From Escherichia phage REP2: 64,000 bases of DNA. The DNA is taken from sequence record OQ174501.1. The stretch is one strand, 5' to 3'. The first letter of the stretch is position 1. Each line of letters opens with the position of its first letter. Of this stretch, positions 8,361 through 56,978 are shown one piece after another. The notes beneath the pieces are model-generated. The model had not been told where the DNA came from, ran no database searches, and saw only the letters and a list, made by a program, of their open reading frames with translations. A program made the position numbers and the translations under genes.

Positions 8361-8906
8361 ATGAGAAAAGCACTACTCGCTGGTCTATTGGCCATTTCAA
8401 TGATGGCACATAGCTCCGAGCATACTTTCAGTAATGTCCAACTCGATAACATGCGTTACGCGTATCAATTCGGGGAACAATTTTCTAAGGATGGAAAATA
8501 TAAAACACACAAAAATATCCACAAGAGCGGATTAGGTCATATAATGGCTGCTATTTTATGGCAAGAAAGCTCTGCCGGAGTTAATTTAAAATCTAAACCA
8601 AAGCATCATGCCTATGGAATGTTCCAAAATTATTTGCCTACTATGCGAGCAAGAGTTAAGGAACTTGGTTATAATATGACCGATGCTGAAATAAAAAGAA
8701 TGTTGAATAAACGGTCCAATTCAGCTTCCTGGGCGTACATTGAACTTTCTTATTGGTTAAATATACATAAGGGCGATATAAGAAAGGCGATATCCTCTTA
8801 TAATTCGGGATGGAATGTTAAAGCAGGTTCTAAATATGCTTCTGAAGTCCTAGAAAAGGCTAATTACCTTAAAAATAATAAACTTTTGGAAATAGTAAAT
8901 GACTAA
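8361..8906 (+). CDS. Periplasmic lytic transglycosylase-like protein
   Basis: Signal peptide MRKALLAGLLAISMMAHS; family-1 LT motifs WQESSAG, GMFQ, SYNSGW. Confidence 0.65.
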   Translation: MRKALLAGLLAISMMAHSSEHTFSNVQLDNMRYAYQFGEQFSKDGKYKTHKNIHKSGLGHIMAAILWQESSAGVNLKSKPKHHAYGMFQNYLPTMRARVKELGYNMTDAEIKRMLNKRSNSASWAYIELSYWLNIHKGDIRKAISSYNSGWNVKAGSKYASEVLEKANYLKNNKLLEIVND

Positions 8907-9240
8907 AATTTTGGTTTTATGTATAGGATTAATTTCATTTTCTGTGTTAGCAGATACATCATATACTGAAATTAGAGAGTATGTAAACCGTACTGCCGCG
9001 GATTATTGTGGGAAAAATAAAGCATGCCAAGCTGAATTTGCGCAGAAATTAATATATGCATATAAAGACGGAGAAAGAGATAAATCAAGCAGATATAAAA
9101 ATGATACATTGTTAAAACGATATGCTAAAAAGTGGAATACTTTAGAATGTTCAGTTGCGGAGGAGAAAGATAAAGCCGCTTGTCATTCAATGGTTGACCG
9201 TTTAGTAGATTCTTATAATCGAGGATTGAGTACTAGATGA
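8899..9240 (+). CDS. Secreted Cys-containing small protein
   Basis: Signal peptide MTKILVLCIGLISFSVLA; four Cys; 113 aa. Confidence 0.5.
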   Translation: MTKILVLCIGLISFSVLADTSYTEIREYVNRTAADYCGKNKACQAEFAQKLIYAYKDGERDKSSRYKNDTLLKRYAKKWNTLECSVAEEKDKAACHSMVDRLVDSYNRGLSTR

Positions 9241-9716
9241 TTGTAAAATATATCAAGGGCGATATTGTCGCCCTATTTCTTCAAGGTAATATTATTGCGC
9301 ACGGGTGCAATTGCTTCCACACAATGGGCTCTGGCGTAGCGGGTCAATTAGCAAGAGCCTATCCCAAAATTTTAGAAATAGATAAAACCACTACCGAGTA
9401 CGGTTCTCGTGATAAATTAGGCGATATGTCTATTGTTTTTAAACATAGTCCTACGGGATTTGGTATATGCTATAACCTGTATACACAATACGAACCGGGT
9501 CCTAATCTTGATTATGGTGCTTTAGTAAACTGCATGATAGAATTAAATCTACAGGCAGAAACCCTTTTGTTTAAACCAGTAATTTACATTCCACGCATAG
9601 GTTGCGGTATTGCTGGCGGCGATTGGGATAAGGTTTCTAAATTAATCGACATGTTTACTCCTGATATTGATTTAATAGTGGTGGATTATGAAAGTACATT
9701 ACCCGCATCCGTTTGA
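9237..9716 (+). CDS. Macro-domain protein (ADP-ribose binding/processing)
   Basis: Macro motifs IIAHGCNCFHTMGSGVAGQLARA and IPRIGCGIAGGDW; 159 aa. Confidence 0.7.
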   Translation: MIVKYIKGDIVALFLQGNIIAHGCNCFHTMGSGVAGQLARAYPKILEIDKTTTEYGSRDKLGDMSIVFKHSPTGFGICYNLYTQYEPGPNLDYGALVNCMIELNLQAETLLFKPVIYIPRIGCGIAGGDWDKVSKLIDMFTPDIDLIVVDYESTLPASV

Positions 9717-9900
9717 TCCTAAAAACAAAGTGGAAATTATTCGTCAATGGGAACGCATTTGCCGTACTAAATGCCCAATTAATAGTCCACATGATGTAGA
9801 TAAAGACTATATTGGAACATTCGTTGAATATACCTTTATTGATAGGAAAGGTCGTAAACAACATGTAGAAGAATATTGTTTAAAGGTTACATGGTTATGA
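9688..9900 (+). CDS. Hypothetical protein
   Basis: 70-aa ORF, 3' end overlaps the next gene. Confidence 0.4.
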   Translation: MKVHYPHPFDPKNKVEIIRQWERICRTKCPINSPHDVDKDYIGTFVEYTFIDRKGRKQHVEEYCLKVTWL

Positions 9901-10103
9901 GCCAAACTAGTATTCTTAAAAATGCCCACTGCGAAAAGTGTGAATGGCCAGTTGTTTTTGCTTTATGTAATGATGAAATGGCTTGTGATTTCGATTATTG
10001 GTGCTATTGTTCTAATAAAGGATGCATCAATCATAAAGGTGAAGGATTTTATTCGGGATTTTATCCTTATCCAGATTTCGTTAAAGAAGGTAAACCGAAA
10101 TGA
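9897..10103 (+). CDS. Cys-rich small protein
   Basis: ATGA overlap start; 11 Cys in 68 aa. Confidence 0.45.
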   Translation: MSQTSILKNAHCEKCEWPVVFALCNDEMACDFDYWCYCSNKGCINHKGEGFYSGFYPYPDFVKEGKPK

Positions 10104-10273
10104 ATAGTTCTGAGTTACAATATGAAGTGTTACGTGAACTTGATAATTTAATTGAACTCGCTGTTAATAAAGGTTTTGCCATTGGAATTGGTCAAAAAGA
10201 TACTGGTCATTTAACTATGGAAATATTTAAGCAAAAGCGAATTATTTTAAAACTCCTGGAAATTAATATATGA
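10100..10273 (+). CDS. Hypothetical small protein (57 aa)
   Basis: ATGA overlap with both neighbours. Confidence 0.4.
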   Translation: MNSSELQYEVLRELDNLIELAVNKGFAIGIGQKDTGHLTMEIFKQKRIILKLLEINI

Positions 10274-10455
10274 GTCTGAGTAAAGAACAAAAAGATAAAT
10301 TGTTTGAGCTTATCCATGAACTTCTAGATGAGCATACAGAAGCAAACACCTTTTATGATGAATACGGCCCGCTATCTCCCGAACAGCAAGAAGAATTTGC
10401 TGATCGGTTTGATAAGAAAGAAAACGAATTAATAGCTTATGTGAATATGCTTTAA
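10270..10455 (+). CDS. Hypothetical small acidic protein
   Basis: 61 aa. Confidence 0.5.
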   Translation: MSLSKEQKDKLFELIHELLDEHTEANTFYDEYGPLSPEQQEEFADRFDKKENELIAYVNML

Positions 10456-50299: not shown

Positions 50300-50593
50300 A
50301 TGAAAAAATTTATTTTTGCTACAATTTTTGCTTTAGCTTCTTGTGCTGCTCAGCCTGCTATGGCAGGTTATGATAAAGATTTGTGTGAATGGTCTATGAC
50401 TGCGGATCAGACTGAAGTTGAAACTCAAATTGAAGCAGATATTATGAATATCGTTGAGCGCGATCGCCCTGAAATGAAAGCTGAAGTGCAAAAACAGCTT
50501 AAGTCTGGCGGTATCATGCAGTACAATTATGTTTTGTATTGCGATAAAAACTTCAATAATAAAAATATCGTAACCGAAATCACAGGTGAATAA
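50300..50593 (+). CDS. sp: Spackle (periplasmic lysozyme inhibitor / superinfection exclusion)
   Basis: 97 aa with signal peptide MKKFIFATIFALASCAAQPAMA. Confidence 0.8.
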   Translation: MKKFIFATIFALASCAAQPAMAGYDKDLCEWSMTADQTEVETQIEADIMNIVERDRPEMKAEVQKQLKSGGIMQYNYVLYCDKNFNNKNIVTEITGE

Positions 50594-51230
50594 TATGATT
50601 TATTATATGCACAAAAATCCACCGTTTAAATACGGTAAATTTCCTGATGCACAATGTTATAATATAACGCCGAATGAAAATAATAACGGATATCATATTG
50701 GTGTAATTTTTGTAATTGTTAAAGATAACGAAATCGTTGCCTGGGCAGATTTTAAAGGTACAACATATGATGTTAATCCTGTGCCTTTCACATATTACAA
50801 TATAATGGATTTGGCATATGATTATAATTGGTTTAATCATGACGCGTTGGCTCATATTGAAGGTGTAGGATTTGACATCTCTTATTCTAGCTATTCATTA
50901 TGTCCTATGAGCCGAGCTCACGGTAAAGATGTATCATATCTTTCAATTCGGAAACGTGTAATCTTCAAACGTAGTACAGAGTATGTTGGCGGGCTCTTTG
51001 TTAAAGATAATAAAATAACCCGCATTAGTTATCCTTTAAGTGTAGATCAAAAAGATGTTGATGTTGATTTAGACTTAACTGAAAATAACATTAATCGTAT
51101 TGCTTCTGTGTATTTTGATATCGATGAAAAAATTGTAGTGTGTGGATACGAATTACCAGCAGAAAAACAGTCTAAAGTAAATGTTTCTATTGATGACCAA
51201 ATTTTTAATGCTTTTATGAATAGAGGTTAA
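50586..51230 (+). CDS. 61.2-position protein (AdfA-like anti-DarT candidate)
   Basis: 214 aa; position between sp and 61. Confidence 0.5.
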   Translation: MNNMIYYMHKNPPFKYGKFPDAQCYNITPNENNNGYHIGVIFVIVKDNEIVAWADFKGTTYDVNPVPFTYYNIMDLAYDYNWFNHDALAHIEGVGFDISYSSYSLCPMSRAHGKDVSYLSIRKRVIFKRSTEYVGGLFVKDNKITRISYPLSVDQKDVDVDLDLTENNINRIASVYFDIDEKIVVCGYELPAEKQSKVNVSIDDQIFNAFMNRG

Positions 51231-55732: not shown

Positions 55733-55755
55733 TTCTGAAGTATATGGAGGCTATC

Positions 55756-56379
55756 ATGATTATTAATCTCACAGATGTTGAACAGTTATCTATAAAAGCT
55801 GAAAGTGTCGATTTTCAATATGATATGTACAAAAAGGTCTGTGAAAAATTTACTGACTTTGAACAGTCAGTTCTTTGGCAGTGTATGGAAGCCAAAAAGA
55901 ATGAAGCTCTTCATCGGCAGTTGAATAAAATCGTTAAAAAGCATTTAACTAAATCGCCTTATCAGCTATATCGTGGTATATCAAAATCGACAAAAGAACT
56001 CATTAAAGATTTACAAGTTGGAGAAGTGTTTTCAACGAACAGAGTAGATTCATTTACTACTAGTTTGCACATAGCATGTGGTTTTTCTTATGTTGAGTAT
56101 TTCACTGAAATAATATTTCGCTTAAAAACTGATAAAGCTTTTAATTATTCTGACCATATCAGCGATATTATACTTTCTTCTCCTAATACTGAATTTAAGT
56201 ATACATATGAAGATACTGATGGATTAGATTCAGAACGTACTGATAACTTAATGATGATTGTACGTGAACAAGAATGGATGATTCCAATTGGAAAGTATAA
56301 AATAACTTCTATTTCAAAAGAAAAATTACACGATTCATTTGGAACATTTAAAGTGTATGATATTGAGGTAGTTGAATGA
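55756..56379 (+). CDS. modB: ADP-ribosyltransferase ModB
   Basis: 207 aa; ART R-S-E motifs (YRGI, FSTN, EQEWMIP); first of a tandem ART pair upstream of dda. Confidence 0.75.
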   Translation: MIINLTDVEQLSIKAESVDFQYDMYKKVCEKFTDFEQSVLWQCMEAKKNEALHRQLNKIVKKHLTKSPYQLYRGISKSTKELIKDLQVGEVFSTNRVDSFTTSLHIACGFSYVEYFTEIIFRLKTDKAFNYSDHISDIILSSPNTEFKYTYEDTDGLDSERTDNLMMIVREQEWMIPIGKYKITSISKEKLHDSFGTFKVYDIEVVE

Positions 56380-56978
56380 AATACTCAGTAATGCAACTAA
56401 AAGATTTTAAAATAAAATCAATGGATGCATCGGTGCGTGCTTCTATTCGTGAAGAATTACTTTCCGAAGGATTTAATTTATCTGAAATTGAACTTTTAAT
56501 TCATTGTATTACTAATAAACCAGACGATCATTCTTGGTTAAATGAAATAGTCAAATCTCGTTTGGTTCCAAACGATAAACCTCTTTGGAGAGGTGTTCCA
56601 GTTGAGACTAAACAGGTGTTAAATCAAGGAATTGATATTATTACATTTGATAAAGTAGTATCAGCTTCATATGATAAAAATATAGCTCTACATTTTGCTT
56701 CTGGATTAGAATACAACACACAAGTTATTTTTGAATTCAAAGCTCCTATGGTGTTTAATTTCCAGGAGTATGCTATAAAAGCTTTACGTTGTAAAGAATA
56801 TAGTCCGAGTTTTAAGTTTCCGGATAGCCATCGCTATCGTAATATGGAATTAGTTTCAGATGAACAAGAAGTAATGATACCAGCTGGAAGTGTATTTAGA
56901 ATTGCGGATAGATACGAGTATAAAAAGTATTCAACATACACTATCTATACTCTTGATTTTGAAGGATTTAATCTATAA
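56376..56978 (+). CDS. modA: ADP-ribosyltransferase ModA
   Basis: 200 aa; ART motifs (WRGV, VSASYD, EQEVMIP). Confidence 0.75.
   Translation: MKYSVMQLKDFKIKSMDASVRASIREELLSEGFNLSEIELLIHCITNKPDDHSWLNEIVKSRLVPNDKPLWRGVPVETKQVLNQGIDIITFDKVVSASYDKNIALHFASGLEYNTQVIFEFKAPMVFNFQEYAIKALRCKEYSPSFKFPDSHRYRNMELVSDEQEVMIPAGSVFRIADRYEYKKYSTYTIYTLDFEGFNL

Follow-up and report, generated by a model that had tools for sequence, protein, structure and literature searches.

The tk.4 (adfM) gene of Escherichia phage REP2 encodes a macrodomain protein with a lysine-free, Gln-type active-site signature

Background

What does a macrodomain protein do in a T4-like phage, and on which substrate does it act? We address this question for one open reading frame (ORF) of Escherichia phage REP2, located at 9237..9716 in a stretch of 64,000 nucleotides (nt) of record OQ174501.1, which we analysed as a whole and call the window. 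The ORF begins with ATG and encodes a single-domain macrodomain protein of 159 amino acids (aa), the product of tk.4, also named adfM; this gene with its motifs and overlaps, and vs, tk.3, modB and modA, lie on the plus strand. A first-pass annotation, made from the letters of the DNA, had noticed two macro-domain motifs here and offered three possible functions: removal of host defensive ADP-ribosylation, degradation of ADP-ribose-derived immune signals, or regulation of the phage's own ADP-ribosyltransferases (ARTs).

DarTG acts against phages by ADP-ribosylation of their DNA. T-even phages have accumulated several counter-measures, AdfA, AdfN and AdfM, of which tk.4/AdfM would be the thymidine-specific layer. 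We estimate a probability of about three in four that Tk.4 acts during infection to reverse DarT2 damage, as a thymidine-ADP-ribose DNA glycohydrolase whose mechanism needs no lysine and is assisted by Gln and Asn. The gene is already known: the T4 record carries a macro/A1pp-motif annotation and the functional assignment as AdfM was made in 2025, and with the T4 role published the finding itself raises no new question. Our additions are modest refinements: the Gln-type site, the kinship with SCO6735 and BT1257, the non-orthology with the AdfM of phage PhiKZ, the stand-alone bacterial relatives and the divergent allele.

Results and discussion

Orthology and distribution of tk.4

We identify the window ORF as tk.4 (adfM) of a T4-like Tequatrovirus, orthologous to T4 tk.4. 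The gene order regB-vs.1-vs-tk.4-tk.3 is common to the window, T4 and annotated relatives. In an annotated Tequatrovirus relative the same gene is named tk.4, with vs and tk.3 on either side, and the order is unchanged in the T4 reference record, which describes tk.4 as 'phosphatase; contains A1pp phosphatase motif'. The window protein and T4 Tk.4 share 58% aa identity over 155 residues (E=1e-70), and the window protein matches PHROG 335, which is labelled 'phosphatase' (1.2e-71).

A megablast search with the 480 nt of tk.4 matched 557 phage records. In at least 17 of them, among which are Shigella phages Sf21 and CM8 and Escherichia phages Paracelsus and WilhelmHis, the DNA of the copy is 100% identical, and all of these copies are in Tequatrovirus-type genomes; one is already labelled "macro domain protein", while other labels are "phosphatase" or "hypothetical protein". 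At the protein level, of the 50,697 phage records searched with tblastn, 2789 encode a relative; the hosts of these phages include Escherichia, Klebsiella, Salmonella, Pseudomonas, Vibrio, Acinetobacter and Aeromonas. With 557 megablast and 2789 tblastn records, the occurrence of tk.4 is far above chance.

Fold and macrodomain class

Tk.4 is a macrodomain, with a mixed alpha/beta fold in the model predicted from its sequence. The Pfam Macro profile (PF01661) matches residues 22-136 at model positions 2-117 of 118 (E=1.3e-7; score 32 bits, gathering cut-off 22), so that the profile search for which the first-pass annotation had asked agrees with the sequence and the predicted fold in upholding the macro-domain assignment. 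The two motifs to which that annotation had pointed are also present in the ORF: motif 1, IIAHGCNCFHTMGSGVAGQLARA, spans residues 19-41 (9291..9359) and is the predicted first ADP-ribose-binding loop, and motif 2, IPRIGCGIAGGDW, spans residues 118-130 (9588..9626) and is the predicted phosphate-binding glycine loop. Both loops are conserved, and ADP-ribose binding is predicted.

An AlphaFold2 (AF2) model built with 61 homologues has a mean predicted local distance difference test (pLDDT) score of 94.6 and a predicted template-modelling (pTM) score of 0.89, with C-terminal residues 157-159 below a pLDDT of 50. The sequence matches in the Protein Data Bank (PDB) are BT1257 (4e-10), Poa1p (1.6e-9), SCO6735 (8.5e-8) and the DarG of Mycobacterium tuberculosis (Mtb; 5m3i, 4.9e-5), and the top Foldseek matches of the model in the PDB are TARG1 (5.8e-10), BT1257, Poa1p (4.6e-9), the DarG proteins of T. 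aquaticus and Mtb, and SCO6735. The nearest solved structures are thus TARG1, BT1257, Poa1p, DarG and SCO6735, which therefore places Tk.4 in the ALC1/TARG1-like class of macrodomains. Thymidine-ADP-ribose reversal has been called a unifying activity of this class (PMC9411070).

We considered the MacroD/YmdB type, suggested by the labels 'RNase III inhibitor' and 'O-acetyl-ADP-ribose deacetylase', and rejected it because the nearest class by both structure and sequence is ALC1/TARG1-like. The 'RNase III inhibitor' or YmdB label is a naming artefact, in that the PDB chain so named is Mtb DarG: the molecule name of the macrodomain entry 5m3i is 'RNase III inhibitor', and at least one phage record (vB_EcoM_Nami) labels tk.4 in the same way.

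A Gln-type active site

To place the active-site residues we used profile-profile alignments, because a MAFFT alignment of seven distant macrodomains misaligned the NLYTQ region. In an hhalign comparison of the 61-member Tk.4 profile with SCO6735 and BT1257 [prob 99.1, E=5.3e-19, score 117.6], the HGCN of Tk.4 (residues 22-25, at 9300-9311 within motif 1) corresponds to HVCN of SCO6735 (24-27), and NLYTQ (80-84, at 9474..9488) corresponds to NMIGQ (81-85), followed directly after Q84-Y-E by a gap of 5 residues in Tk.4. This match is stronger than that of the same profile to the DarG proteins of Mtb and T. aquaticus together with PhiKZ gp104 [prob 98.5, E=1.9e-15, score 97.7]. In the latter alignment NLYTQ is placed on the NFPTK of DarG and gp104, with Gln84 on the lysine, and N25 of Tk.4 aligns with N22 of DarG and N23 of gp104. 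This lysine has been named as the active-site residue, K80 in DarG and K78 in gp104 (PMC13309987), and in TARG1 the catalytic lysine at the position of Gln84 is K84.

The position of Gln84 is that of the essential Gln85 of SCO6735, whose residue numbering we checked against the residues named in the published study (PMC9411070). In that study Gln85 occupies the catalytic-lysine position; activity is lost in both Q85A and Q85E, nearly lost in N27S and reduced in G128E (PMC9411070). The glutamine sets SCO6735 and ALC1 homologues apart from TARG1 and DarG homologues, and the authors propose a water-mediated catalysis in which the Gln positions the distal ribose (PMC9411070). On thymidine-ADP-ribosylated (dT-ADPr) DNA, SCO6735 is a faster hydrolase than DarG and TARG1; it also relieves the toxicity of DarT and leaves guanine adducts in place (PMC9411070).

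Fifteen residues are invariant in the 61 homologues (H22, G23, N25, C26, G33, A35, D49, G62, N80, Y82, Q84, P119, G122, G124 and W130). Since Q84, N25, G122 and G124 correspond to Q85, N27, G126 and G128 of SCO6735 and all four are invariant, Tk.4 carries an SCO6735-type catalytic signature.

Anti-DarT phenotype of T4 and the proposed mechanism

The phenotype of the T4 orthologue was described in a November 2025 preprint (bioRxiv 10.1101/2025.11.20.689424). HIDEN-SEQ of a T4 transposon library on E. coli that expressed DarTG2 gave a single significant hit, tk.4, and a clean tk.4 knock-out rendered T4 sensitive to DarTG2 (bioRxiv 10.1101/2025.11.20.689424). The deletion experiment against DarTG-carrying hosts that had been suggested for the window gene has therefore been done by others for its T4 orthologue. 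The preprint authors named the gene adfM, for anti-DarT factor Macrodomain, and proposed that it removes ADP-ribose from DNA enzymatically, on the basis of AlphaFold similarity to the macrodomain of Mtb DarG (bioRxiv 10.1101/2025.11.20.689424). It had been observed earlier that T4 remains fully resistant to DarTG2 when adfA and adfN are both missing, which is consistent with a role of tk.4 against DarTG2. The preprint also reports that, in minimal medium, no T4 gene was depleted more strongly than vs (bioRxiv 10.1101/2025.11.20.689424). As a side observation, vs lies directly upstream of tk.4 and overlaps it translationally, and polar effects between vs and tk.4 insertions in HIDEN-SEQ may deserve attention.

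The mechanism that we propose runs as follows. The host DarT2 of DarTG2 would ADP-ribosylate thymidines in single-stranded phage DNA and so block replication. Tk.4, which would be produced from the vs-tk operon during infection, would hold the ADP-ribose moiety in the cleft between its two glycine-rich loops and hydrolyse the thymidine-ADP-ribose bond, which would restore replicable DNA. Catalysis is probably of the SCO6735 type and not of the DarG/TARG1 type, with no catalytic lysine: Gln84, held by Asn25, would position the distal ribose while water does the chemistry. The fold, class, orthology and residue correspondences are established in this analysis. Transferring the genetics of T4 tk.4 and the enzymology of SCO6735 to the window allele, we infer by analogy that this allele, 58% identical to T4 AdfM, probably acts like it and that its substrate is probably ADP-ribosylated DNA.

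Several points weigh against this interpretation. The support for the Tk.4 family is genetic and not biochemical; it comes from a T4 preprint whose accessible text describes neither complementation nor a catalytic mutant. The DarTG2 phenotype is that of the T4 allele, to whose protein the window protein is just 58% identical. The DNA-binding lysines of SCO6735 are not conserved (K34 is replaced by S32, and the K89 segment is missing), and Tk.4 is acidic overall (isoelectric point, pI, of 5.0 versus 9.7), so that a DNA-binding surface is less obvious. The residue correspondences come from profile alignments and not from superposed coordinates. SCO6735 and TARG1 also remove Asp/Glu-linked ADP-ribose from proteins (PMC9411070), and DNA therefore need not be the sole substrate.

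Alternative substrates

Two labels, the 'A1pp phosphatase motif' of the T4 record and the 'phosphatase' of PHROG 335, favour a metabolite enzyme that does not act on DNA, either an ADP-ribose-1''-phosphate phosphatase of the Poa1p kind or an O-acetyl-ADP-ribose deacetylase. In the same direction, the Poa1p counterpart of the invariant H22 is H23, which was mutated in deposited structures (6lfs H23A), and T29 aligns with Poa1p S30; however, the match to Poa1p lies mostly in the N-terminal half, and the phosphatase annotation derives from a domain name and not from an assay. No Tpt1/KptA-type enzyme, which would generate Appr>p, is known from T4. The T4 tk.4 phenotype is specific to DarTG2, a system that ADP-ribosylates DNA, and we regard a metabolite substrate as very unlikely.

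A similar weighing applies to proteins as the substrate, where Tk.4 would remove the Asp/Glu marks of host ARTs or tune the marks of the phage enzymes Alt, ModA and ModB. The modA and modB genes that the first-pass annotation had reported in the same phage are indeed there: modB at 55744-56379 (5.9e-42) and modA at 56376-56978 (5.4e-33) both match PHROG 832, 'RNA polymerase ADP-ribosylase'. They serve here as context only: they are 46 kb from tk.4 and unlinked to it, no ART is co-located with tk.4, and their link to it is only co-occurrence in one genome. Moreover, Alt, ModA and ModB modify arginine, and it is ARH/DraG-type enzymes that cleave this N-glycosidic linkage; macrodomains are not known to do so. 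TARG1 and SCO6735 do strip Glu/Asp-linked ADP-ribose from proteins, but SCO6735 strongly prefers DNA over protein in competition (PMC9411070). With DarTG2 as the condition of the sole T4 tk.4 phenotype found, we hold the protein reading to be highly improbable.

The third idea, that Tk.4 degrades or sequesters ADP-ribose-derived immune signals such as the gcADPR of Thoeris, or is a non-catalytic ADP-ribose binder, would have to accommodate the invariance of N25 and Q84 and the fact that all of its closest relatives hydrolyse their substrates as members of the ALC1/TARG1-like class. DarTG2 gave the sole reported hit, with no reported phenotype of the immune-signal kind, and we consider this explanation extremely unlikely. 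Among the three functions first offered for the gene, then, the removal of host defensive ADP-ribosylation is the one that the T4 orthologue supports, and neither immune-signal degradation nor regulation of the phage's own ARTs finds support here.

Bacterial relatives and the origin of the gene

We rejected for this family an origin by capture of a DarG ("orphan antitoxin") because the catalytic Lys is absent, the DarG scores are far below threshold, no DarT was detected in the window or, in a search with one query sequence, near 80 bacterial homologues, and there is no conserved neighbour. With the PADLOC DarG model the window protein scores 27.5 bits, T4 Tk.4 36, SCO6735 34.5 and PhiKZ gp104 132.9, and with the NCBIfam DarG equivalog the window protein scores 27.7 bits against a cut-off of 250, matching model positions 2-142 of 338, that is, the macro half only. 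No DarT2 homologue was found in the 64,000-nt window.

We found at least 477 bacterial genome stretches with a gene for a relative of Tk.4, and examined neighbourhoods and residues in the 80 best bacterial loci. The homologue is a stand-alone ORF of 146-244 aa in these loci, and Q84, N80, Y82 and D49, which are outside the patterns used for retrieval, are kept in 80 of 80. A phmmer search with one P. aeruginosa DarT2 query, of limited sensitivity, detected no DarT2 homologue within 4 kb of the 80 homologues, and there was no recurrent neighbour, with no gene family present in more than 6 of the 80 loci. The stand-alone bacterial genes, together with the lack of a DarT in this single-query search and of a shared neighbour, argue for recruitment of tk.4 by T-even phages from among stand-alone macrodomains of bacteria and against capture of a DarG antitoxin.

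Separately, inspection by eye of a few bacterial loci or metagenome-assembled genomes (L017, 2453-3937; L011, 4561-5370) shows the homologue beside ORFs resembling nicotinamide phosphoribosyltransferase and PRPP synthetase. These neighbours may represent a phage-type NAD-salvage module, in a prophage or a mis-binned phage contig.

A divergent allele between conserved flanks

At the DNA level, identity to T4 is 86-100% across vs and the first ~50 nt of tk.4, whereas the body of tk.4 (9293..9684) falls to 40-80% identity in sliding 50-nt windows of the pairwise DNA alignment, and the interior of tk.3 is back at 88-98%. The flanks of this island in vs and tk.3 stand at 88-100%. A divergent tk.4 body between conserved flanks indicates an allele replacement by recombination in an otherwise conserved operon. 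At the 3' end, 13 nt present in T4 are deleted immediately ahead of the tk.3 start (window 9670-9716); this lengthens the tk.4 frame and shifts its stop, which gives the tail ...YESTLPASV and a 29-nt overlap with tk.3 (9688..9716), compared with the 4-nt ATGA in T4. The AF2 model predicts the tail ...STLPASV to be disordered.

The tblastn matches to the window protein fall into bands of at least 90% identity (312 records), 80-90% (7), 60-80% (103) and below 60% (2367), with T4/T2-type copies at ~58%. These bands indicate that tk.4 is a mosaic cassette with several old alleles, and by sequence comparison there are at least two strongly divergent tk.4 alleles in Tequatroviruses.

Does the divergence reflect a change in function? 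The window allele might have a specificity shifted from that of T4 AdfM and still be a nucleic-acid de-ADP-ribosylase, directed at other DarT variants, sequence contexts or RNA adducts. This would account for the highly divergent body between conserved flanks, and the several allele classes among phage records, as well as the active and inactive alleles of other anti-DarT factors that T-even phages carry, fit with it. However, all functionally implicated residues are common to the window and T4 alleles, including every family-invariant residue tested functionally in SCO6735, and accessory genes of T-even phages often undergo mosaic replacement of alleles, which does not have to mean a new specificity. 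We consider a shifted specificity quite unlikely. A broader conjecture, which we consider unlikely, is that the Tk.4 family represents a third mechanistic subtype of DNA de-ADP-ribosylating macrodomain, with a Gln-type site on a short-loop acidic scaffold without the DNA lysines of SCO6735, derived from widespread stand-alone bacterial macrodomains and not from a captured DarG; the island of divergence would then be arms-race diversification of specificity for substrates or DarT variants, possibly including RNA or other base adducts.

Neighbouring genes and other features of the window

The neighbours of tk.4 in the window are regB, the SLT-domain gene vs.1, vs, tk.3 and tk. Directly upstream is vs (valyl-tRNA synthetase modifier; 8899..9240), identified by PHROG 1256 (7.5e-40) and by the annotation of related records. 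The ORF ends and the sequence show that its stop overlaps the tk.4 start in an ATGA at 9237..9240, as in T4, and translational coupling of the two genes is probable. Directly downstream is tk.3 (DUF7202; 9688..9900), matched by Pfam PF23832 (5.1e-37). The interval between tk.3 and tk (window 9876-10455) contains three small ORFs, of 75 aa (PHROG 2306), 57 aa (PHROG 3452) and 61 aa (PHROG 653, tk.2-like); this set is the RB32ORF111c/110c arrangement of a relative, where T4 instead has tk.2 and tk.1, and constitutes a further mosaic difference.

Within codons 7-13 of tk.4, in a stretch nearly identical to T4, an 8-bp GC-rich hairpin is followed by a T-rich tract (9256-9274). We rejected this terminator-like hairpin as a feature on the basis of its unexceptional fold energy (z=-1.53) and of the lack of an excess of such sites (3, with 2.0 expected in shuffles). 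A promoter scan showed no enrichment (12 found, 14.7 expected). Elsewhere in the window, a 214-aa ORF at 50586-51230 (PHROG 3781, of unknown function) lies between a gene 41-like helicase ORF and a primase ORF (PHROG 47). Going by the T4 gene order, this is presumably the slot of 61.2, the anti-DarTG1 factor AdfA, and the ORF would be a candidate for AdfA.

Comparison with known systems

The closest system is T4 Tk.4/AdfM itself, with which the window protein shares the slot between vs and tk.3, the length class (159 vs 155 aa), the first 14 residues and the invariant H22, N25, Q84, G122, G124 and W130. The two differ in 42% of residues, in motif 2 (IGCGIAGGDW in the window vs IGAGIGKGNW in T4) and at the C-terminus, which is 4 residues longer in the window as a result of the 13-nt deletion.

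Human TARG1/OARD1 and yeast Poa1p belong to the same macrodomain class and are among the top Foldseek matches. The catalytic dyad of TARG1 is missing in Tk.4, where Gln84 stands at the K84 position and where, by a manual alignment of the glycine loop with that of TARG1, Ala126 would stand at the position of D125. Poa1p acts on a small molecule, and only its H23 has a counterpart (H22) in Tk.4.

The DarG antitoxin macrodomains (Mtb 5M3I; T. aquaticus 5M31/5M3E) differ from Tk.4 in having K80 in place of Gln84, and Tk.4, with 159 aa, lacks the C-terminal DarT-binding domain and an adjacent DarT. The name AdfM has also been given to PhiKZ gp104 (Cell Rep 2026, PMC13309987), which strips DarT2-made ADP-ribose from a TNTC oligonucleotide in vitro (PMC13309987) and is, like Tk.4, a phage macrodomain that counters DarTG2. 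We nevertheless rejected orthology of the two: gp104 is truly DarG-like (9.4e-25 to Mtb DarG, with Lys78 kept in FPTK), its BLASTP match to the window protein is weak (E=0.001 over 23 residues), and the PADLOC scores are far apart (132.9 vs 27.5 bits). Two non-orthologous phage macrodomains are thus named AdfM, the Gln-type, SCO6735-like Tk.4 of T4 and the Lys-type gp104 of PhiKZ, a true DarG homologue, and the shared name invites annotation errors. This is relevant to phage genome annotation, where the labels of tk.4 already vary ('phosphatase', 'RNase III inhibitor', 'hypothetical'), and to predicting the DarTG2 resistance of therapeutic phages.

SCO6735 of Streptomyces coelicolor (PDB 5E3B) and BT1257 of Bacteroides (2AFC/2FG1), which form a subclass of stand-alone thymidine-ADP-ribose DNA hydrolases, resemble Tk.4 in the Gln in place of the lysine, the conserved Asn, the glycine loop and their occurrence as stand-alone genes, at an identity of only about 24-29%. 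SCO6735 has a mobile loop (Lys89/Lys93) 5 residues longer than that of DarG and TARG1, whereas the loop after the Gln in Tk.4 is 5 residues shorter than in SCO6735 and BT1257, as in DarG and TARG1. The DNA-contacting K34 of SCO6735 corresponds to S32, its K89 falls within the 5-residue loop segment missing in Tk.4, and the pI of 9.7 applies to the SCO6735 fragment. These comparisons correct the emphasis of earlier descriptions: the T4-type AdfM is not a copy of DarG but a lysine-free, Gln-type macrodomain that is closest to SCO6735, BT1257 and the stand-alone genes of bacteria.

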